NCBI GenBank assembly: GCA_030390025.1
Contig: CM059431.1
Coordinates: 126,110,001-126,174,000 of the forward strand
From: Squalus acanthias
Taxonomy: Eukaryota
Reading direction: 5' to 3'
DNA length: 64,000 nt
The position numbers were made by a program, and so were the translations under genes. Under the pieces are notes generated by a model. It made no database searches. It was not told the origin of the DNA and saw only the letters and a list, made by a program, of their open reading frames with translations. Each line of letters opens with the position of its first letter. The first letter of the stretch is position 1. Positions 12,500 to 39,926 of this stretch are shown piece by piece.

Positions 12500-13467
12500 G
12501 GACCTAGAAATTTGGTAGTCCCCGAAAACGGGCACAGGGATCGCGATGTGAAAGCAACCCGCACCTGTTCGGAGGACTGCAGGCAGCACCTAAAATTCAC
12601 GCTGCCTGCTATTTTGCATTATTGTAGCATTCAGCCGAGCGCTGAGCGCCGAGCGCTGAGCACTGAACACGCTGCTGAGTGGCTTAATGCTCAGCAGGGG
12701 GCCCAAGTTCGGGTGAGGCTTGCTCCAATTAAAGCTAGCCTGCACCTCTTAAATGGAAGCTGGCTTCTGCCTGCAACAGGTGGTGGAAATGCTTGTGGAG
12801 GCTACTGGTATAAAAAGACTGAGTAATGGCTCAACAGGCATGAGAAAGGCTCCAAGGTTCTCAGATGCAGCACTGGAGGTGTTGTTCCAGGAGGTCAACT
12901 CCAGGAGAGAAGTCCTCTTCCCAACAAGGGCCAGGAGGCCCTCCAGGCAACAGACAAGACGGCAGTGGGAGCAGATAGCCAACGTGGCCAATGCCAGTAG
13001 TATAGCCGCGAGGACCTGGACTCAGTGCAGGAAGAAGTTTAATAACTACACACGCGAGGTCAAGGTCGGTGAATTCATCTTCAAATGCCATACCCCACCA
13101 TTTGCCTCACACCTGCTCAATGCACCACACCCTCAATCACTCACCTACCAACCATTTCTACCAAATACCTCACATTTGTAGCTTCAACTCACCCGCACAC
13201 ACTTATCACTGCTGCAAGACTCACATCAACATCTCACAGCTTGAACACACTGTCAGCTATTAAACCATGACAGGCACATCACCCAAACAGATTACGCCAC
13301 ACAAACTGACACACTTCTCTTTCTCTTGCAGGAAAAGGTGGCACATAAAAGACGCCAGCAGACATTAACTGGCGGGGACAGACTTGGCTGCATCACCTCA
13401 CTCCCTTGGAGGAGATGGTGTTGGCCATTCTTGGCTGAGGCATGGCTGAGCCCGTGGCAGGGCTGAA
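12500..13467 (+). mobile_element. Harbinger H2, left part: Myb/SANT gene exon 1 and start of exon 2
   Basis: ORF 12753-13181 APRFSDAALEVL...RTWTQCRKKFNN; donor AAG|GT at 13065, acceptor CAG at 13329-13331; collinear with H3. Confidence 0.88.
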
Positions 13468-15200
13468 ACATAGAAACATAGAAGATAGGAGCAGGAGCAG
13501 GCCATTCGGCCCCTCGAGCCTGCTCCACCATTCAATGATATCATGGATGATCATCCAAATTCAGTACCCTGACCCTGCTTTCTCCCCATATCCCTTGATC
13601 CCTTTAGCCTTAAGAAATATATCTAACTCCTTCTTGAATATATTTAATGAATTGGCCTCAACTGCCTTCTGTGGTAGAGAATTCCACAGGTTCACCACTC
13701 TCTGGGTGAAGAAATTCCTCCTCATCTCAGTCCTAAATGGCTTACCCCTTATCCTTAGACTGTGACCCCTGGTTCTGGACTCCCCCGCCATCGGGAACAT
13801 CCTTCCTGCATCTAGTCTGTCTAGTCCTGTTAGAATTTTATAAGTTTCAATGAGATCCCCTCTCATTCTTCTAAACTCTAGCGAATACAAGCCCAATCGT
13901 CCCAATCTCTCTTCATACGTCATTCCTGCCATCCCAGGTATCAGTCTGGTGAATCTTCGCTGCACCCCTTCCATGGCAAGAACATCCTTCCTGAGATAAG
14001 GTGAACAAAACTGCACACAATACTCAAGGTGTGGTCGCACCAAGGCCCTGTACAACTGCAGCAAGACATCCTTGTTCCTGTACTCGAATCCTCTCGCTAT
14101 GAAGGCCAACATACCATTTGCCTTCTTAACCGCCTGCTGCACCTGCATGCTTACCTTCAGTGACTGGTGCACAAGGACACCCAGGTCTCGTTGCACTTCC
14201 CCTTTTCCCAATCTATTGCCGTTCAGATAATAATCTGCCTTCCTGCTTTTGCCACCAAAGTGGATAACCTCGCATTTATTCACATTATACTGCATCTGCC
14301 ATGCATCTGCCCAATCACCCAACTTGTCCAAATCATACTGGAGTTTCTCTGCATCTTCCTTACAACACACACGCCCACCCAGCTTTGTGTTGTCTGCAAA
14401 CTTGGAGATATTACATCTAGTTCCCTTGCCTAGATCATTAATATATATTGTGAATAACTGGGGTCCTAGCACCGATCCCTGCGGTACCCCACTAGTCACT
14501 GCCTGCCACTCGGAAAAAGACCTGTTTATTCCAACTCTTTGCTTCCTGTCTGCCAACCAGTTCTCTATCCAAGTCAGTACCTTAAACCCAATCCCATGTG
14601 CTTTAACTTTGCATGCCAATCTCTTATGCGGGACCTTATCGAAAGCCTTCTTAAAGTCCAAATACACCACATCCACTGGTTCTCCCTTATCTATTCTACA
14701 AGTTACATCCTCAAAAATTCCAGTAGATTAGTCAAGCATGATTTACCTTTTGTAAATCCATTTTGACTTTGTCCGATCCTGTCACTGTTTTCCAAGTGCT
14801 CTGCTATTACATCTTTTATAATGGACTCTAGCATTTTCCCCACTACCGATGTCAGGCTTACCGATCAATAATTCCCCATTTTCTCTCTACCACCTTTTTT
14901 AAATAGTGGGGTTACATTAGCTACCCTCCAATCCATGGGAATTGTTCCAGAGTCTATAGAATTTGGGAAGATGACCAGCAATGCATCTACTATTTCTAGG
15001 GCCACTTCCTTAAGTACCCTAGGATGTAGATTATCAGGCCCTGGGGATTTATCGGCCTTCAACCCCGTCAATTTCCCCAACACCATTTCCCTACAAATAC
15101 TGATTTCATTCAGTTCCTCCCTCTCATTAGACCCTATGTTCCCCGACATCTCTGGGAGGTTATTTGTGTCCTCCTTTGTGAAGACAGAACCAAAGTATGT
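13465..15200 (-). mobile_element. CR1 LINE A, 3' part (RT domain, 3' UTR, octamer tail)
   Basis: ORF 13561-14676 with [27 protein letters not shown]; (TTCTATGT)n tail at 13465-13483. Confidence 0.95.
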
Positions 15201-18200
15201 CAAGGATGTCTCAGAGCGGCTGCAGAACATTCTGGAAAGGGAGGGTGAAGAGCCAGCTGTCGTGGTGCATGTAGGTACCAACGATATAGGTAAAAAGCAG
15301 GAAGAGGTCCTACAAGCAGAATTTAGGGAGCTAGGAGCTAAATTGAAAAGTAGGACCTCAAAGGTAGTAATCTCTGGGTTGCTAACAGTGCCACGTGCTA
15401 ATCAGAGTAGCATGAACAGGATAGCGAGATTAAATACGTGGCTTGAGCAGTGGTGCAGGAGGGACGGATTCAAATACCTGAGGCATTGGAACCAGTTCTG
15501 GGGGAAGTGGGACCTGTACAAAAGGGACGGTCTGTACTTGGGCAGGACTGGAACCGATGTCCTCGGGGTAATATTTGCTAAGGCAGTTCGGGAGGATTTA
15601 AACTAATATGGCAGGGGAATGGGAACCTATGTAGCGAAACAGGGGGAAGTAATATGCAGTCAGAAACAAATGTTAGAAGGGTGAGAAACAATAAGGGAAA
15701 TCCGAGTAAACAAAGGCAAGAAACACAAAGGGCCATACTAAATCATAAGTCTAAAAGGACAAAGGGTGTTAATAAAACAAGCCTAAAGGCTCTGTGTCTT
15801 AATGCAAGGAGTATCCGTAATAAGGTGGATGAATTGACTGTGCAAATTGATGTTAATGGATATGATGTGATTGGGATTACAGAGACGTGGCTCCAGAACA
15901 ATCAAGGCTGGGAACTGAATATCCAGGGGTATTCAACATTCAGGAAGGATAGAATAAAAGGAAAAGGTGGTGGGGTAGCATTGCTGGTTAAAAAGGAGAT
16001 TAATGCAGTAGCTAGGAAGGACATGAGCTTGGAGGATGTGGAATCAATATGGGTTGAGCTGCAGAACACCAAAGGGCAGAAAACATTAGTGGGGGTTGTG
16101 TACAGACCTCCAAACAGTAGTAGTGAGGTGGGGGAGGGTATGAAACAGGAAATCAGAGGTGCATGCAAAAAGGGCGCAGCAGTTATCATGGGTGACTTTG
16201 ATATGCATATAGATTGGGCTACTCAAACTGGAAGCAATACGGTGGAGGAGGATTTCCTGGAGTGTTCAAGGGATGGTTTCCTAAACCAATATGTTGAGGA
16301 ACCAACTAGAGGGGAGGCCATCCTGGACTGGGTGTTGTGTAATGAGGAAGGACTAATCAGCAATCTTGTGGTGCGAGGCCCCTTGGGGAAGAGTGACCAT
16401 AGTATGGTGGAGTTCTACATTAGGATGGAGAAGGAAACAGTTAATTCAGAGACCATGGTCCAGAACTTAAATAAGGGCAACTTTGAGGGTATGCGGCGTG
16501 AATTGGCGAGGTTAGATTGGCAAGCGATATTTAAGGGGTTATCAGTGGAAGGGCAATGGCGGACATTTAGAGATCGCATGGATGAACTACAGCAATTGGA
16601 CATCCCTGTCTGGCGTAAAAATAAAAAAGGGAAGGTGGCTCAACCATGGCTAACAAGGGAAATCAGGGATAGTATTAAAAGCAAGGAAGTGGCATACAAA
16701 TTGGCCAGAAGTAGCAGCAAACCCAGGGACTGGGAGAACTTTAAAACTCAGCAGAGGAGGACGAAGGGTTTGATTAGGGCAGGGAAAATAAAATATGAAA
16801 GGAAGCTTGCAGAGAACATTAAAACGGACTGCAAAAGCTTCTATAAATATGTAAAAAGAAAGAGGTTAGTAAAAACAAACATAGGTTCCCTGCAGTCAGA
16901 AACAGGGGAAGTCATAATGGGGAACAAAGAAATGGCAGATCAATTGAACAAGTACTTTGGTTCGGTGTTTACTGTGGAGGACACAAACAACCTTCCGGAA
17001 ATAAAAGAGATTAAAGGATCTGGTAAGAGGGAGGAGCTGAGGGAAATCCTGATCAGTCGGGAAAAGGTATTGGGGAAATTGATGGGACTGAAGGCTGATA
17101 AATCCCCAGGGCCTGATGGTCTGCATCCCAGAGTACTTAAGGAGGTGGCCTTGGAAATAGTGGATGCATTGACGATCATTTTCCAACATTCCTTAGACTC
17201 TGGATCAGTTCCGAAGGAGTGGAGGGTGGCTAATGTTACCCCTCTTTTTAAAAAAGGAGGGAGGGAGAAAGCAGGGAATTATAGACCGGTCAGCCTGACA
17301 TCGGTGGTAGGTAAAATGATGGAATCAATTATTAAAGATGTCATAACAGACCATTTGGAAAGTGGCGACATGATAGATTCAAGTCAGCATGGATTTGTGA
17401 AAGGGAAATCATGCTTGACAAATCTTCTGGAATTTTTTGAGGATGTTTCTAATAGGGTGGACGGGGAGGAACCAGTAGATGTGGTGTATTTGGACTTTCA
17501 GAAGGCCTTCGACAAGGTCCCACACAAGAGATTGGTGTGCAAAGTTAAAGCACATGGGATTGGGGGTAATGTGTTGACGTGGATTGAGAACTGGTTGGCA
17601 CACAGGAAACAAAGAGTAGGAGTAAATGGGTACTTTTCAGAATGGCAGGCAGTGACCAGCGGGGTACCGCAGGGTTCGGTGCTGGGGCCCCAGCTGTTTA
17701 CATTATATATTAATGATTTGGACGAAGGGATTAATTGTAATATCTCCAAATTTGCGGATGACACTAAATTGGGAGGCAGTGTGAACAATGAGGAGGATGC
17801 TAGGAGGCTACAGAGTGACTTGGACAGGTTGGGTGAATGGGCAAATGTATGGCAGATGAAGTACAATGTGGATAAATGTGAGGTTATCCACTTTGGTGGT
17901 AAAAATAGGGAGGCAGACTATTACCTGAATGGTGGCAGATTAGGGAAAGGGGAGGTGCAACGAGACCTGGGCGTCATGGTACATCAGTCACTGAAGGTGG
18001 GAAGGCAAGTGCAGCAGGCAGTCAAGAAAGCAAATGGCATGATGGCCTTCATAGCAAGGGGATTTGAGTACAGGAGTAGGGAGGTGATGCTACAGTTGTA
18101 CAGGGCCTTGGTGAGGCCACACCTGGAGTATTGTGTGCAGTTTTGGTCTCCTAACTTGAGGAAGGACATTCTTGCTATTGAGGGAGTGCAACGAAGGTTC

Positions 18201-18691
18201 ACTAGATTGATTCCTGGGATGGCCAGACTGACATATCAAGAAAGACTGGATCAACTGAACTTGTATCCTCTGGAGTTCAGAAGAATGAGGGGGGATCTTA
18301 TAGAGACGTTTAAAATCCTGACTGGTTTAGACAAATTAGATGCGGGCAGAATGTTTCCAATGTTAGGGAAAACTAAAACCAGGGGTCACAGTCTAAGGAT
18401 AAAGGGGAAGCCATTTAAGACTGAGATGAGGAGGAACTTCTTCACCCAGAGAGTGGTGAATCTGTGGAATTCTCTACCACAGAAGGATGTTGAGGCCAGT
18501 TCGCTAAATATATTCAAAAGGGAGTTAGATATAATACTCACAACGAGGGGGATCAAGGGGTATGGTGAGAAAGCAGGAATGGGGTACTGAGGTAGCATGT
18601 TCAGCCATGAATGCATTAAATGGCAGTGCAGGCTCGAAGGACCGAATGGTCTACTCCTGCACCTATTTTCTATGTTTCTATGTTTCTATGT
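15201..18691 (+). mobile_element. CR1 LINE B, 5'-truncated within ORF1, inserted antisense into CR1 A
   Basis: 9-bp TSD AAAGTATGT (15192-15200, 18692-18700); ORF1 esterase remnant 15201-15606; (TTCTATGT)n tail. Confidence 0.96.
15654..18590 (+). CDS. CR1 ORF2 protein, AP-endonuclease + reverse transcriptase, 978 aa, uninterrupted
   Basis: [72 protein letters not shown]. Confidence 0.95.
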   Translation: MQSETNVRRVRNNKGNPSKQRQETQRAILNHKSKRTKGVNKTSLKALCLNARSIRNKVDELTVQIDVNGYDVIGITETWLQNNQGWELNIQGYSTFRKDRIKGKGGGVALLVKKEINAVARKDMSLEDVESIWVELQNTKGQKTLVGVVYRPPNSSSEVGEGMKQEIRGACKKGAAVIMGDFDMHIDWATQTGSNTVEEDFLECSRDGFLNQYVEEPTRGEAILDWVLCNEEGLISNLVVRGPLGKSDHSMVEFYIRMEKETVNSETMVQNLNKGNFEGMRRELARLDWQAIFKGLSVEGQWRTFRDRMDELQQLDIPVWRKNKKGKVAQPWLTREIRDSIKSKEVAYKLARSSSKPRDWENFKTQQRRTKGLIRAGKIKYERKLAENIKTDCKSFYKYVKRKRLVKTNIGSLQSETGEVIMGNKEMADQLNKYFGSVFTVEDTNNLPEIKEIKGSGKREELREILISREKVLGKLMGLKADKSPGPDGLHPRVLKEVALEIVDALTIIFQHSLDSGSVPKEWRVANVTPLFKKGGREKAGNYRPVSLTSVVGKMMESIIKDVITDHLESGDMIDSSQHGFVKGKSCLTNLLEFFEDVSNRVDGEEPVDVVYLDFQKAFDKVPHKRLVCKVKAHGIGGNVLTWIENWLAHRKQRVGVNGYFSEWQAVTSGVPQGSVLGPQLFTLYINDLDEGINCNISKFADDTKLGGSVNNEEDARRLQSDLDRLGEWANVWQMKYNVDKCEVIHFGGKNREADYYLNGGRLGKGEVQRDLGVMVHQSLKVGRQVQQAVKKANGMMAFIARGFEYRSREVMLQLYRALVRPHLEYCVQFWSPNLRKDILAIEGVQRRFTRLIPGMARLTYQERLDQLNLYPLEFRRMRGDLIETFKILTGLDKLDAGRMFPMLGKTKTRGHSLRIKGKPFKTEMRRNFFTQRVVNLWNSLPQKDVEASSLNIFKRELDIILTTRGIKGYGEKAGMGY

Positions 18692-21433
18692 AAAGTATGT
18701 ATTTAATTGGTCTGCCATTTCTTTGTTCCCCATTATAAATTCCCCTGATTCTGACTGCAAGGGACCTACACTTGACTTCACCAATCTTTTTCTCTTCACA
18801 TATCTGTAGAAGCTTTTATAGTCAGTTTTAATGTTCCATGCAACCTTACTCTCATACTCTACTTCCCCCCTCTTATTTAACCCCTTTGTCCTCCTTTGCT
18901 GAATCCTAAACTGCTCCCAATCCTCAGGTTTGCTGCTTTTTCTGGCCAATTTATATGTCCTCTCCTTGGATCTTATGCTATCCCTAATTTCCCTTGTTAG
19001 CCACAGTTGAGTCACCTTTTTTGTTTTATTTTTATGCCAAACAGGGATGAAAAAATTCTGTAGTTCATCTATGCGATCTTTAAATGCTTGCCATTGCCTA
19101 TCAACCGTCAACTCTTTAAGTAACGTTCCCCAATCCATCCTTGCCAATTCGCGCCTCATACCATCGTAGTTTCCTTTATTTAAATTCAGGACCCTAGTCT
19201 CTGAGTCAACTACTTCACTCTCCATCTTAATGAAGAATTCCATCATATTATGATCGCTCCTCCCCAAGGGGCCTCGCACAACAAGATTGCTAATTAATCC
19301 TTTCTCATTATATAATTCCCAGTCTAAGATGGCCTGATCTCCAGTTGGTTCCTCGACATATTGGTTCAGGAAACCATCCCGTATACACTCTAGGAATTCC
19401 TCCTCCACAGTATTGTTACTAATTTGGTTAGCCCAATCTATATGTAGATTAAAGTCACCCATGATAACTGCTGTGCCCTTATTGCACGCATCTCTAATTT
19501 CCCGTTTAATGCCATCCCCAACCTCAGCATTACTGTTTGGGGGTCTGTATACAACTCCCACTAACATTTTCTGCACCTTGGTATTTCTCAGCTCTACCCA
19601 TACAGATTGCACATCATCAGAGCTAATATCCTTCCTTACTATTGTGTTAATCTCCTCTTTAACCAGCAATGCTACCCCACCTCCTTTTCCTTTTTGCCTG
19701 TCCCTCCTGAATATTGAATACCCCTGGATGTTGAATTCCCAGCCTTAGTCACCTTGGAGCCACATCTGCGTAATCCCAATTATATCATATCCATTTACAT
19801 CTATTTGCGCAGCCAATTCATCCACCTTATTATGAATGCTCCTCGCATTAAGACACAAAGACTTCGGGCTTGTTTTTTTAAAAAACACTTTTTGACCTTT
19901 GTTATTTACTGTGGCCATGTTTGATTTACACCTTTGATTTCTCTGACTGCCATTTTTGCTTTTCTCCTTCCTGTCTTTTGCTTCTATCCTTGCTTCCCTT
20001 TCCTCTGTCTCCCTGCACAGGGTCGCAACCCCCTGCCATTTTAGTTTAAACCCTCCCCAACAGCATTAGCAAACACTCTCCCTGGGACATCAGTCCCGGT
20101 CCTGCCCAGGTGCAAACCGTCCAGTTTGTACTGGTCCCACCTCCCCCAGAACCGGTTCCAATGTCCCAGGAATTTGAATCCCTCCCCCTTGCACCATTCC
20201 TCTAGCCATGTATTCATCTGAAATATCCTCCTATTTCTACTCTGACTAGCACGTGACACCGGTAGCAGTCCTGAGATTACTACCTTTGAGGTCCTATTTT
20301 TTAATTTACCTCCCAACTCCCTATATTCAGCTTTTAGGACCTCATCCCGGTTTTTACCTATATCGTTGGTACCTATATGCACCACGACAACTGGCTGTTT
20401 ACCCTCCCTCTCCAGAATGCCCTGCAGTCGCTCCGAGACATCCTTGACCCTTGCACCAGGGAGGCAACATACCATCCTGGAGTCTCGTTTGTGGCTGCAG
20501 AAACGCCTATCTATTCCCCTTACAATAGAATCCCCTATTACTATAGCTCTCCTGCTCTTTTTCCTCCCGTCCTGTGCAGCAGAACCACCCATGGTGCCAG
20601 GAAGTTGGCTGCTGCTGCCTTCCCCCGATAAGCCATCTCCCTCAACAATATCCAAAGTGGTATATCTGTTTGAGAGGGGGATGGCCACAGGGGACCCCTA
20701 AACTACCTGCCTGCGCCTACTACTCTTCCTGGCGGTCACCCATTCCCTTCCTGCCTGTGCAGCCTTTACCTGCGGTGTGACCAACTGATTAAACGTGCTT
20801 TCCACGACGTCCTCAGCATCGCGAATGCTCCAGTATGTATCCATTCGCAGCTCCAGCGCCACAATGCGGTCTGCCAGTAGCTGCAGCTGGATACACTTCC
20901 CACACACATGGTCGTCAGGGACACAGGAAGTGTCCCTGATTTCCCACATAGTGGAGGAGGAGCATAGCACGGGGCCAAGCTGTGCTGCCATGACTTACAC
21001 TTTAATTAATTTAAATTAAATTAAATCAAAGCCACTAATTGCACTACAATTAAATGATATACTCAAGGGCCCTTGTTTACTAGTACTCCCCGCTACACAA
21101 CAGAGACCTTAGAAACTATAACCACAAAAATTAGGACCTTCTAAACTTTATAAACTATTAACCTTAACTGTCAAACTATAGAGTAGTATAAATACTCACC
21201 TGGCCATACTCCCCCAATCAGCTGCTTCCTCTTGCCCGTATCACTTTTTGAATCGTGGCGTGGCTCTGGAACGCCGCCGCCGGTTTGCGAGATTGACCAG
21301 CCTTTGAAAAAAAGCCCGCGAAAGTAAGTTTAAATACTCAGGGTGAAAAGTTAGGAAAAACAAAGGGGACGCAAGGGAGCTCCTCCTTCCACTCCTCACC
21401 CAACTAGCAGCACTCTGTTGAAAGCACACTCAG
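18692..21433 (-). mobile_element. CR1 LINE A, 5' part (5' UTR, ORF1, APE half of ORF2)
   Basis: APE ORF 18686-19669 (VYRPP, GDFN, SDH); joins 15200 exactly once CR1 B is removed. Confidence 0.95.
20041..20991 (-). pseudogene. CR1 A ORF1: zinc-finger/leucine zipper plus SGNH esterase-like domain
   Basis: Degenerate Cys motif with CGKC, heptad leucines, IGDSIVRG, CLPGA, HIGTND, DGLHL; one in-frame stop near 20698. Confidence 0.9.
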
Positions 21434-21457
21434 TGCAAAATCGCACTTCAAAGCCTG

Positions 21458-21464
21458 TTTTATA
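21458..21464 (-). promoter_or_regulatory. Candidate TATA box (TATAAAA) 30 nt upstream of the CR1 A leader
   Basis: Minus strand CCTATAAAACAGG; first T at 21464, pyrimidine-A start (GCACTG) at 21434. Confidence 0.55.
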
Positions 21465-21631
21465 GGCCCTGAAACAAAGGAGACTTGCTGAGCCCAGCTA
21501 CAGGAAAACCAGCTTAATCTAGTTTCCCTAATTAACTGCCTTCAGCTGCTCTGAATTGTAGGCCTTGGAACTCTTTTAAGCAAACATAAAACTACTATAA
21601 ATCAATAAAACTTTAAATAAAACTTAACAGC

Positions 21632-24600
21632 TTAAATTAAAATTATATTAACCAGGGAGACGATGCACTCCAGTCCCCAAGGCGCCCACCGGTCTCGGAA
21701 GGCTTCAAGTATGCCGGCGGACACCGCGTGCTCCATCTCCAGGGCCTCCCGGGCGCAAACATAGCCGCGGAAGAGAGGCAGGCAATCTGGCCGAACGACC
21801 CCCTCGACCGCCCGCTGCCTGGACCTGTTAATGGCCACTTTGGCCAGGCCCAGTCCTACGAGGAGGTCCTCTGACCAGCCCGCTCCCCTCCGCACCGGGT
21901 GACCGTAGATCAGGAGCATGTGACTGAAGTGCAACCAAATAGCGAGGAGCAGCCCCTTCAAATATTGAAAGAGGGGCTGCAACCTCTCACACTCTACATA
22001 CACGTGGAACACTGACTCCTCGAGGCCGCAAAAAAGACAGGCGGCCTGGGAGTCCGTAAACCTACTTAAGAGCTGATTGCATGGGACTGGTCCGTGCAAC
22101 ACCCTCCAGGCCAAGTCCCCAATAGAAAAGGGGAGGACTCCCGTGTAGAGAGCCCTCCATCGGGGACCTTTGCCTCTGCCGGACGGCAAGATGGCACGCC
22201 AAGGCGTGTCCGGGCGGCAGACGAAGATGGCAAAGTGGAGAGTGTGCAGGAGCAGCCCGTACAGGAAACCCCTCCGTGCAGAACTAAAAGGCACGGAGGG
22301 CATTTCCCTAAGACGGCTCAAGTTGTGAGGCACCGGTTCCCGAGAGGGGTTTCGGGGCCGCGCGCCGATGAGGAATTCCGTCTGAACGGGGGTCAGTTCG
22401 GATGGGATCGCCCCGCATGCTTGAGCCTCCTCGATACACCTAGTGGAGTCGGGGCCCAGTGCCACTTTCAGCGACCCGATGGCTTTGGCCGTGCACCAGA
22501 CGTCGACCCAGGAGAGGCGCCGCGCCAACTCCTCCGGCGCCATCCAGCCCGCTCCTCCGCCATCGAGCAGGTCCCCGACTCTAGTCACCTTGCCAGGCAC
22601 AGCCCTGCCCTCCGCAAGTCACCCGATCCGTCTGACGTGGAGGTGCAGATTCCTGAGCAGCGGCTCCCGAAGGAGAGCCGTTACTCCTGACAGGGGAGAA
22701 CTCCGCCTGGAGGCGACTTGGTTCCAGACCCATAGCAGTTCCTGGTAGAAGACAGGCAGCTCCCACAGGTAGGCACGCGTACAGCCTAATTCCACAAATA
22801 GGAGCTGCGTGTCGTAGTTGAGGGCGTGCATCTGACGGAAGAAATACGTCGCCAGCGCACACCATCTGGGAGGATTCTCGACGTAAAGGTATCTCTGCAG
22901 CGTCTGAAGACTGAAAGTCGCCGCCTGGGTGCAAAGGCACACCAGCGCCTGACCGCCCTCCCTAAGTGGGAGACACAGAACCGTGGCTTGGACCCAGTGC
23001 TTCCTTTTGTCCCAGAAGCAGTCGACGAACTTCCTCTGCATCTTGGCGACAAACGCAGGGGGAGGGATCAAAGTGACCAACCGGTACCACAACATGGCGG
23101 CCACCAGCTGGTTTATGACCAGCGCTCAACCCCTGTAGGACAACACTTGGAGCAACCCCGTCCAGCGTCCTAGGCGAGCGGTGACTTTGGCCTCCAGCTC
23201 TTGCCAGTTCGCTGGCCAGGCGTCCTCAACAGGGCCGAGGTAGACTCCCAGGTAGAGGAGGTGCGTGGTGCTCCAGGCGAAAGGCCTGAACTCCTCCGGC
23301 AGGGAGTCCATCCGGCACGGGCCCACCAGGAGTCCAGAACATTTCTCCCAGTTGATCTTGGCGGAGGATGTGTCCGAGTAAATCTGCTGGCATTCTCGCA
23401 TCACCCGCAAGTCGACGGGATCCGTGACCATGAGGAGCACGTCATCGGCGTAAGCTGAGAGGACGACCTCCACGCCCGGCCCTTGCAGAGCCAGTCCCGT
23501 CAACCTCTTCCGGAAGAGGCGCAGGAAAGGCTCCACGCAAACAGCATATAACTGACCGGACATGGGGCATCCCTGACGTACCCCCCTCCCGAAGCGAAGG
23601 GTCGCCGTCAAAGACCCGTTAGCTTTAATCAGACACTCTGCGGCAGCGTACAGAAGTTGGATCCGGGCGACGAAATGCGTCCCGAACCCGAATGTGCGCA
23701 GAGTTCCGAAAAGATACTCGTGATCCACCCTGTCGAACGCCTTCTCCTGATCCAGGGAAAGGAAGGCGACCGACAGACCAGCCCTCTGGGAAAAGTGGAT
23801 CAGGTCCCGGACCAGATGGATGTTGTCGTGGATAGACCAGCCCGGGACCGTTGTGGAAGTGCAGTTTTTGTCTCGGACAAAATGGTGTCCTTGAATTTAA
23901 ACTAATAAAATGGCCGACTCTGACTTGTGTGGAAAAGGGAAAAAATCCATTGTTATGTTCTTTTCTGAAAATAACTTTAAATTCTTAGACTATGCTGTCA
24001 GCAAAAGACTGCCTGCACAAAAGAAAACAGGCTTAATATTGAGATAACCAAGGGCTAGTAAAGTAAACAAACCAGTCGCCTTGGCCTTGGTAAGAGAAGT
24101 AAAATAGATAGACTCCATTTTATAGAGATTAGCTAGTCTCATTGTAAGGCATTTCTAATGTGTTTTTTCTAATTGTTAACTTAGCTTACCTTAAACAACA
24201 TGTCATGTGATATTATACTGTATAAGAATACTCCATTTTCTGTGATTCGGAAGTCTGTCATCATAGCTAATTGGGCTATGGTTGCAGTCTCCTTGCAAGT
24301 AAAATATAATAAAAAGCCTTCTTTGACGATATTGTTTACAAGAGTCTTTAATCAGAAGTCAAACTTCGACACCGTGTAGGATGAGTTGGGGTGGATCATG
24401 TGGGCCAGCACAGTGCCAAGGTGGGCAGACATGGCCCTGGGAAAAATTTTATAGTCCGTGCTGAGGACGGAGACCGGGCGCCAGTTTTTTTAAAAGGCGG
24501 AGATCACCCCTCTTGCGCAGCAGGATGATGACTGCCCTGCACCAAGAGAGGGGCATCTCCCCGGTCGCCAGACTTTCCCCCAGGACCCGCGCGTAGTCGT

Positions 24601-26028
24601 CCCCAAGACGTCCCAGAACGCCCTGTGGAACTCCACGGTCAGCCCGTCCAGCCCCGGGGACTTTCCCCTCGTAGCTGGCCGAGGGCGCCGGTCAGCTCCG
24701 CCAAGCTTAGCGGAGCATCCAATTTTTCGGCGCCCTCCGGGCCGACCTTCACCATATCCTCCCACAAAACTCTGCGCGCATCCTCGCTGGACGGATCCGG
24801 AGAGAACAGAGCGCCGTAATAGGCCCGGGTCTCCGCGCTGATCCCCTCCGGATCTGAGACCAGAGATCCGTCATCGGCCAGCAGCCCCAGGAGCTGCTTA
24901 CGGACCCCTCGTCTTTTTTCCAGCGAGTAGAAGAAGGGGGAGCCGCTGTCCAGGTCCCGCAGGAACTGGATCCGCGACCTCACGTACGCGCCTCGGGACC
25001 CGACCAGCTGCAGGTCCTTCAGCGCGCCCTTCTTCTCTTCGTACACCTTCCGCAGGGCCGGGTCCTCGACTCTTGACCGAGACGGGACTCCAGGTCGAGC
25101 ACCTCCCTCTCCAACCGCCCGACCCTGGCCTCCCACCTCTTGGTCGACCCCTTCGCGTACTCCTGACAGAAGACGCGGACGTGAGCCTTGCCCACGTCCC
25201 ACCATAGCCTCAAGGAGGGGAAGCCCCCCTGCTTCCTTCTCCAGTCGGCCCAGAACCGGCGAAACGAATCCCGGAACCGCACGTCCTCCAGCAGCAGGTT
25301 GTTAAAATACCAGTACGCAGACCCACCTGGCGCCCGCAACGGAGCGAGCTCCGCCCACACCAGGTGGTGGTCTGTGCACGGCTCCGGCCGCATGGAAGCC
25401 GCCAGAACGCAGGAGACGTACGCCCAGGAAATATAAACGCGGTCGATTCTGGACCTTCCTCCTCCAGACCCCACCCAAGTGAAGGCGCTGGAGTCGGGAT
25501 GGAGATTTCGCCAGACGTCCACCAAGTCGAAGGACCCGACCAGGTCCCTCAACTTCACCGTCGCTGCCAGGCTTCACGGGGGACCCGAACGGGTACAATT
25601 GAAATCCCCCCCGAGGATGACGCACTCGCCCACGTCGATGGAGCCCAGAAGAGCGGACACTTCTCCGAAGAAGCGCACTTGCTGCGCACCGGCCTGGGGG
25701 CATACACATTCACTAAATGGAGCGGCACGCCCCCCAGGCGAACAGTGACCTGGAGCAAAAGGCCCGGCACGTGCTCCTTGAGCCCAAAGATCGCCGGTTG
25801 AAAATGCGGGGCCAGCAAGATAGCCACCCCGCCGGAAATGTTGGAGAGGTGACTCATGCTGACCCCTCCTCGCCACTCCAGGAGCCACGTGGCCTCGTCT
25901 CCCGGAACGGTGTGAGTTTCTTGCAGGAAGCACACCGCATACTTCCCGTCCCGAAGGGGCGAGAAGTTATTGAATCTACGGCGTGCCTCTCTGCCGTTGA
26001 TGTTGAGGCTGGCTATGGTTATCTTCAT
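21632..26028 (-). pseudogene. Tx1 ORF2 (APE, RT, C-terminal zinc finger)
   Basis: MKITIASLNING, FLQETH, LGGDFN, TDH, KSPGLDGL, GVRQGCPMS, SAYADDV, CLFCGLEESVFHVYVEC; frameshifted. Confidence 0.92.
23852..24371 (+). mobile_element. Solo LTR, 520 bp
   Basis: TGTGGAAGT...ACTTCGACA termini (8/9 inverted match); 4-bp TSD CCGT (23848-23851, 24372-24375); TATAA near 24222, AATAAA at 24308; AT-rich island inside the Tx1 RT region. Confidence 0.88.
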
Positions 26029-26059
26029 GACAAGAGCATAGTGCTACCTTGACCTAACC

Positions 26060-28132
26060 CTAACGGGAGGAGGGAGCGCGGTTGCTAGTCGACCGCCACT
26101 CCCCTCTCAACCCAGCGGGGAACTTCCGGATCCGACGTCGCTCGGCCGGGCCCACGCCCCCGTCTGCGCCTATGGTTTTGACAGCGGCGCGGACGGAGCA
26201 AACGTGCAGCGCCAGATCCGACCATTTATCAATGGCCAGCCGGATTATATCCTGGCGACCCTGGCCCATGGCCACAAAGTCCCGGAGTTCCACAACGGGG
26301 ATGAGGGGGGACTCGGAGGGGGGCACGAGGGTATCCGCCGCCTCGCTGGCGACGGAGTCCATGTCATCCTCAGTGTCCTCCGCCGGGTCCCCGTCCTCCT
26401 CCGAGGGGGTCGCCATCAGCTGGCTCTACCTCTGCCCCGATCCCACCCCCAGGATCGGCGGCAGAGGAGTCATCCCTGGGCTCCTCCAGAGGCGCCAGGT
26501 CAGGAAGCGGCGGCAGCTCGGGGCCCCCCTCTGCCCCCGGCACTTGGGAACCGGGGAGTACATTAATCCCAGTTCCCCCAACACCCCCGGCGCCAGCGTC
26601 GGAGACGGAGTCAGCGGGCCTTCCCCTTCACCGCGACCAGCCTCCGACCCAGTGGACCGGGGACCCTGGTTGTATTCCTCAACCAGGTCGAGCAGCACCT
26701 GGGAGTAGTCCTGACCGTTTTGGGCGAGCTTGGCCTCATCGTCCTCGCCCACCCCGGTCCCCAGATCGCCCGACCTGGCGAGGAATAACGGTTCTTGAAA
26801 CAATTCTTCTTCCGCGGGTAGTTCCGCGCCCCCCCCCCCACGAGCAGGGTCTCTTCCCCTTCCCCGGGAGGCACAGGCTGGACAGACTCATCTGTCGTAC
26901 CCTCCCGAGGGACAGGCAACTCCTGCCGAATGACGGTGACAGTGGGGGGGGGGGGGGTTGGCGCAGCACCCGTGGTGAGCGACGACTCCCCTTGCGAGGA
27001 GGGACCCCGTTCCTTGCGGTCCTGCTCCTCTTCCAGGGCGTCGCGCCTCCTTTTCAGTGTGGAGGGATACGGAGGTTGGGAGACCTCCATGTTTACTGAG
27101 GCCTCCTCCTCCGCTCCCTCCTGTGGAATGGGTTTCCTGGGTCCCTCGGGCCCGGACCCGGCCGCAGGTCTCGATTTTCCCGCCTCGGCGGTTGCGGTCA
27201 CTGGCCCGGGCACAAGGCCCCTCGCACTCTCAAACTCCGCCACCACCTTCGCAAGGTACGGGGGCGTAAGTTTGGGTAAATCATCCCGCTCACCGAGGGG
27301 ACCTGCCTGAAGGTGTTTACATTTCCGCCACGCCTTCCTTCCGCTCGGACGCTCCCCCTCCCCCCCACTGGAGGCCGCGACGGCGTCGACCTCCGGCGTC
27401 GACCGCGCATCGGGTGTCGCAGACGCGCGGACAGAAACAGGGGGAGGAGCGGCGGCGGTGCCAGCCTTGGCCGCCTCAGATGCTTTGGCGGCCTTGGAGG
27501 CGGGGCAGTTCTTTCTTATGTGCCCCACCTCCTTACAGGCATGGCACCGCACACCGTCCGACGTCCAGAAGACGCGGTAGGCGGTCACCTCGTGGTGGAC
27601 GACGAAATCGCCCTCGGTGTCCTCCTCCCGCACCAGCTGGATAAACAGCTGGCGCCGGAAGGAGAAGACGTGCCGGAGGCTGGCCTCCTTGCCGCCGAGC
27701 GGGATTGGAGTGATTCCCGACCTCACCTCCCCCAGTTGACGTAGGTGGGGACGAAACATAGGGCGGGACGTTTGATATTACAATCCTCTGCGCGGTGGCC
27801 TCAAGCGGATCCATCGGCAGGAAGGTCCCGCCCACGGTGAGCCCCTTTTCGATGGCCAGGGACACCACCCGCTCCGACCCCAGGAAGAATACAGCCTTGC
27901 CATACATTTTAGAGGCTGCTACGATGGCTGAGGGGCCGACAACCCCAGCCATGGCTTTGACGCAAGCCCCTATCGTCAGGTTGGGGTGAGTGTAGCTCTT
28001 CACCCCCAGCTTTTTAGTAAGTAATCTGAAAGGTGACGGGGCAGCAGAAGCAGCGGGATTAGCTGTGGCCGTGGCTGCCACACCCGCGTACAACCTCGCT
28101 GGCCTCGCCGCCAGCGATGATGAGCTCGCCAT
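26060..28132 (-). pseudogene. Tx1 ORF1 (RRM-like region, CCHC zinc knuckle, low-complexity tail)
   Basis: IVAASKMYGKAVFFL, RIVISNVPPY, CHACKEVGHIRKNC; frameshifted. Confidence 0.88.
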
Positions 28133-29117
28133 AATGGGGTGTTCTTACTAAAGGGCTACACTCACCCCAAGTCACAGGCCGGGTGATGTTGGAGATAGGT
28201 CTTGGTAGTTGTTTTTTTTTGTCTTTTCCCTGAGCAGAGGGGGTTGTTTAAAGGTGATGGCACACCTCTCCCCTTATTGATTTGGAATTAGGAGAGGGGC
28301 CTTCTCCCCTATGCTCAATTGGGTAATTAATGTAAAAGGTTGGAGGGGCCTCGTTAGAGAAAGAGAGAGGCAGAGAGAGACAATGAGAGAGAGAGAGGGG
28401 GGGTGGTAAGGAGGAAGGCCGCAGGGGCTGGTTCGCCACTTAGGATGGTGGGCAGGTGGGTGCTTGCAGGGGGGGCACTCTCCGATGTTAACTATAGTCT
28501 TTGTGATGTTGTTCTTCTTCTGGTGGGGGGAGAAGATGTCTTCACCGGGGAAAAAACAGCTGGAGATGCCCAGGCTCAGTCCACCACCAGGTCTTAACGA
28601 TGTTGTAGATGGGTAATTAGTTGATGACTTCACCTGGGCAGCTCCAGCTGTCCCAGGTCAAACAATAGGCAAGGGGTGCTTGTTAATGGTGTGTGTGGCC
28701 TAGTTGTTAGCAAGAGCCACACACACCCCTTGCTGTTCCGGTCTTCTCCTTCTTCTTCCCTCCCCCCACCTAAAATACAAAGTCTTTTGGAGAGTGCCCT
28801 TTTAACACCCACCTGTAGATGTTTTTCTCAATGGCTCGCTCTCCCTCCTTCCAAGAAGATGTTGGTCTTGTTTCTCTTCTCCCCTCTCTCGTAATGGAGA
28901 CCAGTTGGGGAGGCAGTGATGGAATGGCTTCCTTCTTGTTTTTTCCCTGGTCTCCTCTCCTCTCTCTCTTCTGGCACCTCAGCAGCAGTAGTAGTAGTAG
29001 TAGTAGCTGCAGCAACAACAGGCGTGGTGGAGGTGGAAAGGGTCTCCACTCGGCCCTTCATGGCTCGGTCTCCTTCTCTTTCACCCAACTCGCAGCACTC
29101 TGTTGAAACTGCACTCA

Positions 29118-30995
29118 GAAGGAATACAAGATGCCGGTATCCTCATACGTTATCCTCCTTCTCACATCCCACTTCCCCCTCATCCCACAATCTCTTCTGA
29201 TTTACAATCTCCCCATGGTGTAAGCATGGAATTCTTCCTTTACCCACACCCCCTAACCTCCCCTCACCACAGCCCTACCCTTGTGCCTTTGTCATTTCAG
29301 ACACCCAAGAAATCCAGCCTGTCTAGCCAGTGGTTGAACAACAAGAGGGAAAGGAGAGGGAAGAAAAAGAAGAAACACCATCACACAATTTCACACTCCC
29401 AGCCACCAGCGCAGATACTGACACTCTGCATAATTTAGAGGACGCGTTAAACGCAGGAGCTGCACACGGTGAGACACCAGGCATGAGTGGCCTGCAGGCA
29501 GCGCAGATGGAAAAGGTAGCTCAGGTGCCAGCTTCCTGGAGGGCGAGGTCTCACACGAGTTCTGCTGCACAGGACTCAGATGAGGACATTGATGGGGCGG
29601 CTTACAGAAGAAGGCTGATGGGTATGCACAATGAAATGCTTGGTGCATTGGAAGGCCTGCCAGAAAGCCTGAATGCAATGTCAAGGAGCGTGGAGGAGTC
29701 CAGCTCCAGCCTTGCATGGGGATTTGGGCAGAGTTTGGAGCCCATCCTTTCCAGCTTCGAAGGGATGGGCAGATCCATTAACGCACTTGTGGACGCAACC
29801 ATCATGCCTCGTCTGATGGCCGAAGTCTCAGCTTTCATTGCAGCACAAGCACAAGCCACCCAATGTCTGAATGCTGCAATGGAAGCTCAGACGAAAGTCA
29901 TGCAAGCACAGACTGCTGCCATCGTGGCTGGGTTTACCAGTGTTGAAAGGGGCTTGCAGTGTGTCACAGCAGTCCAGCAGTCTGCACTCTGTCAGATTGC
30001 TGGGATTGCTGAGGCACTGCCCAGGGGGAGTGGCAATGGATCTGACCCTGCTGTCCTCTCTCAAGATGCTAGCATTCATCCTCCCACCACTGCCACTCCA
30101 CCAGTGCCCTTGTTGTTGCCAGTCTGTCAGCTAGCCCAGACTACTGTCACCCATGCTGAGGTGGTGCAGTCCAAAGCTGGGCCTATTAGGCCCTGAGCTC
30201 CTCGAGGTTGTCCTGGAAGGCCATCTGCAGTCTCCCCCACTGAAAGTCATCAGCCTTCCACCAGCCTTTGCCACTGGGGTAGACAAAGGCACACGCAAGA
30301 CAGTCACTAAGGGAATGCACAAGGGTGATTAGTTGAATTTTTGATGTAATTTTGGTATGGATATATGGATAAAGATTGATTGGAAAGTTTTCTTTGTGGT
30401 GGCTTTTATTTCAGCATTGTGGCCAAGAGGACGCTGTGATGGTCAGTAACAGAAGAAAGGTAAAGTGTGGGACTAATGTTGAATAAAGAATTGGGGTTGC
30501 GTTCACTGGTACTGCAGGCGGATGATTCGATTCTGGATATCCCAGCCAGAAATGGGCTGTCTTGGTTACCTCCTTCTTTCCGGTTCCTTCTCTTACGCCG
30601 CCTCCTCTTCCCCCTCTTTCTTTTCCTGCTCCTGAGCTGGTGGCCGTATCCCTGGTGGCAAGGGCTCTGCCCTCATGATGATCAGGTTGTGGAGGATACA
30701 GCAGATCACGATAAATCGGGACATGGTGTGTACTGTAGGGCTTTTCCAGAGCGGTCCAGGCAGTGGAAGCGTTGTTTAAGGATGCCAACGGTCTGCTCTA
30801 TGATATTTTGTGTGACAGCTTGGCTCTTTTTGTACGCATGCTTCCCATGTGTGGTTGGATTGCAAAGCGATTTCATGAGCCAGGTTGTCAAGGGATAGTC
30901 CTTGTTGCCCAGTAGCCAGCCTCTGGTTTGTCTTGGTGGCTCAAAGACTGAGGGAATAGCGGACTGGCGCAAAATAAAAGCATCATGACTGCTGT
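29118..30995. mobile_element. Harbinger H2, right part: rest of the Myb gene (+; last exon open at 29330-30196) and transposase 3' half (-; ~30505-30995); right end lost
   Basis: Resumes with GAAGGAATACAAGATGCC, matching H3 38479-38497; transposase motifs GWLLGNKDYP, IIEQTVGILKQRF. Confidence 0.9.
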
Positions 30996-38112: not shown

Positions 38113-39926
38113 AATGCTCAATGCATGACACCCCAATCACTTACCTACCAACAATCGCTACCAAACAAGAGGCACACTTCACATTCCTAGCTTCACCTCA
38201 CCCTCACACACTTTACCACTGCTGCAAGCCTCACACCCACATCTCACAGCTTGAACACAGTAAGTTATTCAACCATGACAGACACATCACACACACACAT
38301 TGCACCACACTCACTGACACACTTCCCTATCGCTTGCAGGAAAAGGTGGGCATAACCAGTGCCAGCAGATGTTAACCAGCAGGGGGCAGGCTTGCCTTCA
38401 TGACCTCACCCCCATGAAGGAGACGGTGCTGGGCATTCTTGGCAGGGGCATGGCTGAGCCCATGGCCAGCGGTGGGGCTGAAAGAATACATGATGCCAGT
38501 ATCCTCATACGTTATCCTCCTCACATTCCACTTCCCCTCATCCCACAATATCTTCTGATTTGCAAGCTGCACATGGTGTAAGCATGCACCTCTTGATTTC
38601 CCCCCCTCCCCTCACCACAACTCTTCCCTTGTGCCTTTCTCATTTCAGACAGCCAAGATATCCAGCCTGCCCAGCCAATGGTTGAACAAGAAGAGGGAGA
38701 GGAAAGTGAAGAAGAAGAAGAAATAGCATCACTCGATTTCACATTCCCAGCCACCAGCTCAGATACTGACACACCAATTACTTTAGAGGATAGTTTAGAC
38801 ATGGGATCTGCAGGTGGTGAGAGACGGGCACGAGTGGGCTGCTGCCAGCTCCCCAGAGGGCTATGTTGCGCATGAGTTCCGTTGCGCAAGACTCAGATAA
38901 AGACTTTGATGGGGCGGCCTACAGAAGAAGGCTGATGGGTATGCACAATGAAATGCTGGGTGCATTGGAAGGCCTGCCAGAAAGCCTGAATGCAATGTCA
39001 AGGAGCATGGAGGTGTCCAGCTCCAGCATAGCACGGGGATTTGGGCAGAGCTTGGAGCCCATCCTTTCCAGTGTGGAAGGGCTGGGCAGATCCATTAACA
39101 CACTTGTGGACCCAACCATCATGCTGTGTCTGATGGCCGAAGTCTCAGCACCCATTGCAGCTCAAGCAGAAGTCACCTAACTTCTGAATGTTTCAGTGGA
39201 AGCTCAGACTGAAGTCGTGGAAGCTCAGACTGAAGTCATGCAAGCACAGACTGCTGCCATCATGGCTGGGTTTACCAGTGTTGAAAGGGGCTTGCAGAGT
39301 GTCACAGCAGTCCAGCAATCTGTACTCCAGCAGATTACTAGGATTGCTGAGGTGCTGCCCCGGGGGAGTGGCAGTGGCTCCGTGAAGGACAACCCTGCTG
39401 TCCTCTCTCAGGATGACAGCATTCGTCCTCCCACCACTGCCACTCCGCCAGTGCCCTTGCTGATGACCGTCAGCCAGCCAGCCAGTCCAGGCTGCTGCTG
39501 CCCATGCCAAAGTGGTGCAGTCGAAGCTGGACCTACTAGGCCCAGTGCTCCTCGAGGCCATCCTGCAAGGCCATCTGCAGTCTCCCCCACTGAAAGTCAG
39601 CAGCCTTCCACCAGCCATGCTACAGCCACTGGGCTAGCACTGCGTATCACAAGACAATCACTAAGGGAATGCATAAGGGTGTTATTTAATATTTTGATGT
39701 AATATTGGATGCATATATGGATAAAGTTGGATTGGAAAGTTTGCTTTTTTTTCCAACATTGTGGTCAAGAGGATGCTGTGATGGTCAGTAAAAGAGGAAA
39801 GGCAAGGTGTGGGACTAATGTTGAATGGGGAATTGGGGTTGTGTTCACTCGTACCATAGGTGAATGATTCGATCCCGGATATCCTGGCCAGAAAAGGGCT
39901 GTCTGGGTTCCCTTCTTTCTTCCGCT

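Follow-up and report, generated by a model that had tools for sequence, protein, structure and literature searches.

A Tx1-clade LINE family of Squalus acanthias that probably inserts at one site of a promoter repeat carried by CR1-type LINEs and by itself

The window analysed here, a stretch of 64,000 nucleotides from Squalus acanthias (contig CM059431.1, positions 126,110,001 to 126,174,000), contains a Harbinger copy, H2, interrupted by a large block of LINE sequence. The left part of H2 stops at GGGCTGAA (13460-13467) and H2 picks up again at 29118/29119; alignment with an intact copy, H3, confirms the split at 13467/29118 described in an earlier note on this DNA, with just 2-3 bases in common at the break. 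The Harbinger context is backed by the Pfam domains DDE_Tnp_4 (8256-8699) and Myb_DNA-bind_5 (12753-13178), and the open frames of the right part of H2 gave no Pfam match. CR1 elements have repeatedly hit this Harbinger site; the expected 5' end (L131) of the CR1 at locus L128 matched none of the segments compared. The insert consists of a decayed minus-strand Tx1-clade LINE followed by CR1 A, which is split by an inverted CR1 B. The earlier note was also right that neither Harbinger DNA nor poly(A) lies between Tx1 and CR1 A, and that a direct repeat, here called the leader, heads both (29081-29118 and 21396-21433, 34/38 identical). The features are the following.

13250..13467, plus strand: left part of Harbinger H2, up to the break (alignment with H3)
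13468..15197, minus strand: 3' part of CR1 A, with the 3' tail ...TTCTATGTTTCTATGT (alignment)
13564-14727, minus strand: CR1 A reverse transcriptase (RVT_1)
15198..18691, plus strand: CR1 B, a nested, inverted, 5'-truncated CR1 (alignment, domain search)
15582-18587, plus strand: open ORF2 stretch of CR1 B, 1002 aa (open reading frame)
18692..21395, minus strand: 5' part of CR1 A with 5' UTR, ORF1 and APE (domain search, alignment)
18689-19744, minus strand: CR1 A APE (Exo_endo_phos_2)
20044-20697, minus strand: GDSL esterase of CR1 A ORF1 (Lipase_GDSL_2, E = 3.3e-13)
21396..21433, minus strand: leader of CR1 A, ending in the splice-donor-like motif GG/GTGAG, with 3 private changes
21434..21566, minus strand: P, downstream part of a promoter repeat (alignment with other copies)
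21464-21458, minus strand: TATAAAA in P, 30 nt before the first base of the leader
21555..21570, minus strand: copy of the Tx1-family target site, TTCC+AAGGCCTACAAT here and TAC+AAGGCCTACAAT in other copies
21571..29080, minus strand: body of the Tx1-clade LINE (domain matches, alignment with other copies)
21635-22618, minus strand: Tx1 zf-RVT (domain search)
23129-23896, minus strand: Tx1 reverse transcriptase (domain search)
25558-26043, minus strand: Tx1 APE fragment (domain search)
26614-27777, minus strand: Tx1 ORF1 with CCHC (domain search)
29081..29118, minus strand: leader copy at the Tx1 5' end, starting CTGAGTG, with 1 change from the family-wide majority within 38 nt
29119..29330, plus strand: right part of Harbinger H2, from the break onward (aligns with H3 from 38483 on)
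38474..38490, plus strand: uninterrupted counterpart of the break site in Harbinger H3 (alignment)

Tx1 and CR1 A lie on the same strand in this order, as had been claimed, but the claim that both are full-length holds for Tx1 in extent only, with many frame breaks and some 12 open stretches, and CR1 A is divided by CR1 B. The upstream element belongs to the Tx1 clade as judged by its reverse transcriptase, which is 59% identical to Xenopus TX1 ORF2 (YTX2_XENLA; 95% query coverage, E = 5e-87). The matches of its endonuclease (Exo_endo_phos, E = 0.0071, 16.6 bits against a cutoff of 24.5) and of its zinc finger (zf-RVT, 26.9 bits against 27.5), both scored on broken fragments, fall below the cutoffs. 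The element terminates in ...AAAAGAG, without poly(A). CR1 A has the canonical CR1 layout of an esterase ORF1 and an APE-RT ORF2 (Lipase_GDSL_2, Exo_endo_phos_2, RVT_1), the esterase ORF1 being described as a CR1 trait in passages of PMC13343379. As in canonical CR1, a short tandem repeat, ...TTCTATGTTTCTATGT, forms its 3' end next to the flank, without poly(A). Two CR1 types are named CR1-b and CR1-c here, CR1 A being of the latter.

The boundary between Tx1 and CR1 A, placed at 21433/21434 by the earlier note, proved to be wrong: Tx1 ends at 21571, and 21570-21434 belongs to a LINE promoter repeat of ~290 nt with the structure [leader][X, about 119 nt][P, 134 nt with TATA box]. All other 3' ends of the Tx1 family that were examined adjoin (TAC)AAGGCCTACAAT, both in search matches (39/39) and in fetched loci (50/50). 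Every one of the 39 non-self matches to 21540-21900 crosses the Tx1/P boundary, and 20/20 fetched 3' ends run on through P. An exact 22-mer of Tx1 end plus site occurs 65 times vs 0 in the reversed control, with P downstream in 30/30 fetched examples; the corresponding unoccupied 22-mer (X end plus site) occurs 87 times. Truncated Tx1 copies of 131-284 nt, found at seven of the 30 fetched junction loci and at L061, are all preceded by X plus AAGGCCTAC(AAT) and followed by the full site (8/8), a duplication of 10-15 bp, with at least four different truncation points. Since all 3' ends examined adjoin one site and all eight truncated copies duplicate it, the family is site-specific. The suggestion that it targets the 5' part of CR1-type LINEs is therefore supported in general, with a junction fixed to the nucleotide genome-wide; what follows the 3' ends is P, leader and a LINE, rather than own poly(A) tails at unrelated sites.

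At full-length Tx1 copies, the one in the window included, the duplication is absent, and exact-pattern searches for an upstream site copy beside the leader found no [site][leader] junction genome-wide. The exact pattern of X end plus site followed by a non-T base matched only L047 itself, because exact matching is strict; the truncated copies do carry the duplication. Downstream of Tx1 in 31 loci lie CR1-b (15), the 5' UTR of Tx1 itself (13) or unclear sequence (3), and Tx1 junctions recur in pairs 7.0-7.7 kb apart. Pairs of Tx1 with CR1-c occur only at L007, L023 and L120, all diverged. Rfam gave no match in three repeat-bearing loci and, on the block, only a chance-level SgrS match (E = 0.45) and no hammerhead; thus the target does not seem to be a ribozyme or small-RNA gene. 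It is likely that the family inserts by target-primed reverse transcription between X and P, at (TAC)AAGGCCTACAAT, duplicating 10-15 bp of the site and making no poly(A), so that a new copy would always lie just upstream of P, a leader and another LINE.

One of the two readings offered by the earlier note took the leader itself as the target, with a long duplication, which would be of 38 bp. Leaders do flank the window Tx1, and an initial alignment seemed to stop at 21395, which suggested the leader as the Tx1 3' end; this was dropped once a more sensitive alignment continued into CR1. The site precedes the leader by 134 nt, the 87 unoccupied sites show X and P without a break, and the truncated copies sit between X and P and duplicate the site, not the leader. 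Moreover, another family, whose 3' end is different, adjoins the same nucleotide (L001, L010, L011, L014), and some CR1 copies have 5' ends inside P or X with no leader upstream. The variant in which Tx1 itself carries P and leader at its 3' end was rejected, being contradicted by the unoccupied sites, the truncated copies and the second family. Both forms of this explanation are thus very improbable.

The leader is better understood from the 5' ends of the elements. Full-length Tx1-like copies and at least two CR1-type families (CR1-b and CR1-c) open with the same 38-nt leader. The promoter repeat upstream of it is present in some copies only; both the CR1-type families and Tx1 carry it in their 5' UTRs, as 0, 1 or at least 2 units per copy (L077, L102), and the arrangement [leader][X][site][P][leader] exists at L016, L065, L066 and L093. 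In 20 of 28 CR1-c copies the 5' end falls within a few nt of ACTGAGTG and the flanks are unrelated; the remaining eight retain P and its TATAAAA, 30 nt before the leader. The Tx1 copies L042, L044, L047, L054, L056 and L059 also start at the leader. Reading it as the 5' end is thus right for the usual copy of the CR1 A family, but CR1 A extends 137 nt further upstream; of the 28 other CR1-c copies examined, just 2 reach far enough to hold the Tx1 site. Tandem 5' units with a fixed start point resemble a monomer-type LINE promoter, in which P may act as the promoter and the leader is the predicted transcription start of both LINE families.

The leader is also, as predicted from sequence motifs, a short first exon of 34 nt. 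A splice junction predicted from GT...CTAAC...AG occurs 252 times vs 0 in the control for CR1-b, and the ~76-nt intron is missing in 6/6 fetched examples; for CR1-c, the type of CR1 A, the spliced junction has only 1 match. The leader would head both Tx1 and CR1 A because they share a transcription start and first exon. Whether its four mismatches are fixed family differences had been raised as a check, and all four are private to the window locus. Leader positions 15 and 39 were discarded as diagnostic, as they vary within Tx1 and the nearest relatives, L041 and L042, match the window state. Taken together, specificity of the Tx1 family for one 15-letter site in a LINE promoter repeat, with the shared leader, the common start and first exon and target-primed insertion, is very probably the correct account.

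Tx1-clade LINEs are known to target other transposons. Passages of PMC4494074 describe Tx1L of Xenopus laevis in the transposon Tx1D, Keno in U2 snRNA genes, Kibi and Koshi in microsatellites, and the crocodilian Tx1-Mar in Mariner-N4 and Tx1-8_Crp and Tx1-4_AMi in LTR elements. As in the Tx1L/Tx1D type, the family described here inserts at a single nucleotide of a repeat present in many copies, makes a short duplication and lacks poly(A), and the reverse transcriptase is close to that of Tx1L ORF2; it differs in targeting the 5' UTR promoter repeat of CR1-type LINEs and of itself. Our literature search did not turn up any Tx1 element described as targeting the 5' UTR of a LINE. Monomer-type promoters are described for mouse L1 (PMC9022269, PMC6454616), and 5' repeating subunits for some CR1-group elements in parts of PMC13343379. 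These share with the present repeat the 5' units, the fixed start point and the variable unit number. However, the TATA box of the present repeat precedes the start, which is why most copies (the 20 above) lose it, and one unit serves two LINE clades. The predicted spliced copies are comparable to the human L1 SpIREs, spliced integrated retrotransposed elements (described in PMC5860796), as genomic LINE copies apparently from 5' UTR-spliced RNA with an exact GT-AG intron removed, whereas here they are CR1-type and almost all of CR1-b, with a 34-nt first exon and a ~76-nt intron.

With regard to the block itself, our tentative reading, plausible though somewhat short of an even chance, is that Tx1 inserted in place into the repeat unit of CR1 A and that its front end was joined via leader homology. 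CR1 A would have landed first in the Harbinger hot spot with one repeat unit in front, and a full-length Tx1 would then have inserted at the site within that unit. The Tx1 cDNA end, complementary to the leader, may have paired with CR1 A's own upstream leader, with the loss of X and the upstream site copy, and Harbinger DNA would thus have come to adjoin the leader and Tx1 body. CR1 B would have inserted last, into CR1 A. The required target form exists at the four loci cited, and a leader-joined front end agrees with a [site][leader] junction being absent genome-wide though truncated copies retain the duplication; the leader-to-leader joining is presumed, as no junction carries a diagnostic marker. 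R2 and R1 elements of rDNA depend on the transcription of their target, and it has been proposed that their 5' junction is set by homology of their RNA to the upstream target. R2 belongs to another clade than this family, has a different endonuclease and inserts into a host gene instead of a retrotransposon.

Against in-place insertion, the window Tx1 looks no younger than CR1 A, contrary to what it requires. Tx1 diverges from its family majority by 5.1% and CR1 A by 2.7% (non-CpG, 3.9% vs 2.0%), private substitutions are 39/1426 vs 20/1339 (Fisher p = 0.025) and best pairwise identity is 93% vs 96.4% (96.7% over a 900-nt body segment), values to be read with the CpG-richness of Tx1 (96 vs 39 CpG in the compared stretches), with some of its 3' UTR variants being common to L021 and L022, and with the Tx1 ages resting on a sample of Tx1-junction loci that includes several of its closest relatives. 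P differs from its majority at 4/131 positions, compatible with either age.

A single 12.2-kb read-through RNA, made at a source locus where a CR1-c had Tx1 in the usual site before it and reaching from the Tx1 leader to the CR1-c tail, may instead have been copied by CR1 proteins into the Harbinger hot spot in one step, which is possible though doubtful. The block does start at the transcript-start position and end at the CR1 tail, with 2-3 bases shared at the break, and read-through into a downstream LINE is expected, since Tx1 has no poly(A). The CR1 machinery copies RNAs that start upstream of the usual start, as shown by the eight CR1-c copies with P and by others starting in X or P, and L009 resembles a LINE copy with its 5' end ~25 nt inside the Tx1 3' end, without X upstream. 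The missing [site][leader] junction suits this route as well. However, a cDNA 2.7 times as long as a normal CR1 would be required, none of 8 sampled truncated Tx1 copies is of composite type, and the CR1 of the source locus should be at least as old as Tx1, the opposite of the divergences. Neither a sibling nor a source copy turned up: the nearest Tx1 relative reaches 93% identity, and the window Tx1 variants are shared by no single locus. Thus the two-RT composite family suggested by the earlier note is not supported, and a one-off composite copy at this locus is possible.

The only reading that allows the Tx1 part to be older than the CR1 part is a chimera or a replacement, which we regard as rather improbable. 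A young CR1-c cDNA would have switched template onto an old Tx1 read-through RNA via P/leader homology or, primed at the regenerated hot spot, would have replaced an older resident CR1 already fronted by Tx1. Most CR1-c RNAs start at the leader and so offer 38 nt of homology, and CR1 elements hit this Harbinger site repeatedly. However, no switch point has left a direct trace: the 17-nt gap that follows the CR1 A leader, considered as a recombination scar, was rejected as a subfamily trait (L001, L002, L003 and L008 have it), and the few differences in P suit either age.

A broader reading, in our judgement unlikely though not far-fetched, is that the family is a parasite of LINE promoters. 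Landing between X and P, with leader homology setting it behind the start of the host LINE, a Tx1 without a terminator would also reach new sites as part of read-through RNAs that the CR1 machinery copies, and the block in the window would be such a copy. If so, this traffic would have produced the promoter and first exon that the two unrelated LINE clades have in common.

Site-specific LINEs have usually been described in host multicopy genes or in DNA and LTR transposons; the present family targets a promoter repeat that belongs to other LINEs and to Tx1 itself. In annotation, the 134-nt P segment should be kept separate from the Tx1 tail, and finding Tx1 next to CR1 is the normal case in this genome, not a curiosity. 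The unrelated clades Tx1 and CR1 appear to share a promoter unit, a transcription start and a spliced first exon, and provide a natural system for how LINEs gain and swap 5' UTRs, for the 5' joining of full-length LINE cDNA, given that truncated copies keep the duplication and full-length ones never show it, and for whether the machinery of one LINE carries another as a passenger.

The window (C7:126110001-126174000, in a 3.7-Gb assembly) contains a Harbinger copy, H2, which is split by LINE DNA. Its left part ends with GGGCTGAA at 13467 and its right part restarts at 29118/29119, and both flanks align to positions 38474-38490 of the uninterrupted copy H3 with 2-3 ambiguous bases at the break, confirming the break described in the earlier note. 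The 15.65-kb insert carries two main elements, both on the minus strand. The upstream one, fragmented into about 12 open stretches, is a Tx1 element with a CCHC ORF1, an APE fragment, RT and zf-RVT, and its RT is 59% identical to Xenopus TX1 ORF2 over 95% of the query. Downstream lies CR1 A, which encodes an ORF1 GDSL-esterase, APE and RT, and is interrupted at 15198-18691 by a nested CR1, inverted (plus strand) and 5'-truncated. In this nested copy, CR1 B, ORF2 is still open over 1002 aa (15582-18587); being only ~81% identical to CR1 A, the copy belongs to another, probably younger subfamily. The features needed here are:

8256-8699: DDE_Tnp_4 domain, supporting the Harbinger label
12753-13178: Myb/SANT domain, also supporting the Harbinger label
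21570-21555, minus strand: the Tx1 target site
21566-21434, minus strand: segment P, belonging with the leader to a repeat unit

A 38-nt leader heads both Tx1 (29081-29118) and CR1 A (21396-21433), and the two copies do agree at 34/38 positions; the Tx1/CR1 boundary, previously placed at this leader, has to be moved. When the upstream sequence of 60 loci was printed, three kinds of left neighbour adjoined AAGGCCTACAAT, all at one nucleotide: the 3' end of Tx1 (...AAAAGAGTAC), a segment named X that is not part of Tx1 (...GGGATATAC), and the 3' terminus of a second element distinct from Tx1 (L001, L010, L011, L014). Since all three meet AAGGCCTACAAT at the same nucleotide, Tx1 in the window ends at 21571, and the site, P and the leader follow. 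The 3' end of the second element reads ...GAATAAAAGATTTAC and adjoins the exact Tx1 site; the element probably represents a related family that is also site-specific. A first search (21380-21500) had suggested that similarity ended at 21395, but when 20 fetched loci were aligned with greater sensitivity, the match ran from ~21530-21600 unbroken to 21100, across both supposed boundaries, in 15 of them, and ended at 21359 or 21339 in the other five.

The repeat unit is laid out as leader, X (~119 nt) and P (134 nt). It precedes CR1 without any Tx1 in L016 and L093, and precedes Tx1 bodies in L044 and L054. The same Tx1 fragment of 131-136 nt (or 217 nt) lies within units ahead of Tx1 bodies (L061, L065) and of bodies of CR1-b, another CR1-type family (L069, L084), and also in L066 and L090. 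As one fragment fronts both families alike, promoter units seem to move between LINE families. In L002, L004, L008 and L050 a LINE 5' end lies at (C)TTTAAGCAGGG, directly after the acceptor-like ...TTTCCCAG of X, and such ends may represent a second start or be related to splicing.

The Tx1 junction falls at the same nucleotide genome-wide, as expected of a target-specific element. The Tx1/P boundary was crossed in 39/39 non-self matches to 21540-21900, P continued after the Tx1 3' end in all 20 fetched loci, and the exact 22-mer joining Tx1 end and site had 65 genomic matches versus none in the reversed control, with P following in 30/30 fetched examples. The unoccupied site, an exact 22-mer joining the X end and the site, had 87 matches. 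Tx1 extended for at least 1.36 kb in 23 of the 30 loci and for only 131-284 nt in seven. Together with L061, these seven make up a set of eight truncated copies, every one of which is preceded by X and AAGGCCTAC(A)(A)(T/G) and followed by the complete site, a site duplication of 10-15 bp. They share four distinct truncation points, and some may descend from one event and have spread later with the repeat unit. The proposal that Tx1 targets the leader with a 38-bp duplication is contradicted by these copies, in which 10-15 bp of the site, between X and P, are duplicated, and we regard it as very improbable. Downstream of 31 junctions lay a CR1-b type 5' UTR (15), Tx1's own 5' UTR (13, the Tx1 body itself being visible in eight) or unclear sequence (3); CR1-c, the type of CR1 A, is a rarer partner (L007, L023, L120). 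Moreover, junctions pair at spacings of 7.0-7.7 kb, which indicates head-to-tail Tx1 arrays.

Among 28 CR1-c copies reaching the leader, 20 start within a few nt of ACTGAGTG with unrelated flanks, while the other eight retain P, with TATAAAA 30 nt upstream (window 21464-21458). The same start point is found in the Tx1 copies L042, L044, L047, L054, L056, L059 and that of the window. From these copies we infer that the leader marks a TATA-directed transcription start. Its 3' end reads GG/GTGAGT, and ~76 nt past it CR1-b has CTAAC, a pyrimidine run and TGTAG/G (slashes mark the predicted breaks). The CR1-b splice junction predicted from these motifs had 252 matches at <=1 mismatch versus 0 for the control, and leader bases 1-34 were joined to the downstream exon in 6/6 fetched examples; the CR1-c counterpart had one match. 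Splicing is shown for CR1-b, from DNA copies only, and at least 252 CR1-b type copies (genome-wide; L122-L127) would derive from RNA with a 34-nt leader exon spliced over a ~76-nt intron. Six of the matches, mostly ~5.27 kb apart at G000:C21:12792584-12824945, look like a tandem array. Since two non-repeat sequences recur ahead of the leader in spliced copies (L122, L124, L125; L123, L127), other elements or upstream exons may also join at its start. In a CR1-c-like 5' UTR at L132:648-825, a ~73-nt unit occurs three times in tandem and the leader was not detected.

A canonical insertion is expected to leave leader, X and site upstream of Tx1. In the window, Harbinger DNA directly adjoins the Tx1 leader, and a site-leader junction had no match genome-wide in exact-pattern searches. 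At the 20 loci where a full-length Tx1 5' end was seen, it fits one of three arrangements: flank, leader and body in direct succession (L042, L056, L059 and the window), an intact repeat unit ahead of the 5' end, or leader-intron-spacer ahead of it. Thus, a flank directly against the leader is not special to the window locus.

The Harbinger/CR1-tail junction was found again elsewhere. Three further Harbinger copies, all diverged (L128, L129/L132, L130), have a CR1 3' end against the same TTCAGCC (window 13460-13475 and 29110-29125); one of these CR1s is of a different family, only 72% identical to CR1 A, and L129/L132 has a CR1 there without Tx1. We read this position as a putative preferred CR1 landing spot, or hot spot, since it resembles the CR1 tail repeat.

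For the block itself we lean, at somewhat less than even confidence, to an in-place Tx1 insertion. Tx1 would have entered the repeat unit of CR1 A, and the end of a full-length Tx1 cDNA would have paired with the upstream leader, with loss of X. The composite of two RTs raised in the earlier note is possible but rather unlikely; here the CR1 machinery would have copied a 12.2-kb read-through RNA that began at the Tx1 start and extended to the CR1 tail. As a recurring family the composite found no support, no sibling of the window Tx1 and CR1 being found among the closest relatives or by shared variants. The four leader mismatches, proposed to separate a composite from a decayed target-site duplication, are all private relative to the common sequence (three in the CR1 A leader, one in that of Tx1, a recurrent CpG variant), and are uninformative on the origin of the block. 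The age test counts against both the simple composite and the simple insertion: Tx1 diverges from its family majority by 5.1% and CR1 A by 2.7%, there are 39/1426 private substitutions in Tx1 (21571-23000) versus 20/1339 in CR1 A (20000-21338; p = 0.025), and the closest relatives are 93% and 96.4% identical, respectively (96.7% for CR1 A on a 900-nt body segment). Private substitutions are ~1.8 times higher in Tx1 than in the CR1 it supposedly invaded. A chimera or replacement, by template switch or replacement of one element, would account for this greater divergence of Tx1, and we consider it improbable; all other origins share the remaining probability. The age contrast must be taken as a caveat and not a verdict, because the Tx1 stretch is CpG-rich and the family has subfamily structure.

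Targeting of other transposons by the Tx1 clade is published (PMC4494074), repeating 5' subunits have been reported in some CR1-group elements (PMC13343379), and mouse L1 monomers and human SpIREs have already been described. In the literature searched, no report of a Tx1 targeting a LINE 5' UTR was found. The system formed by Tx1 and the promoter repeat is of more interest than a single chance nesting.
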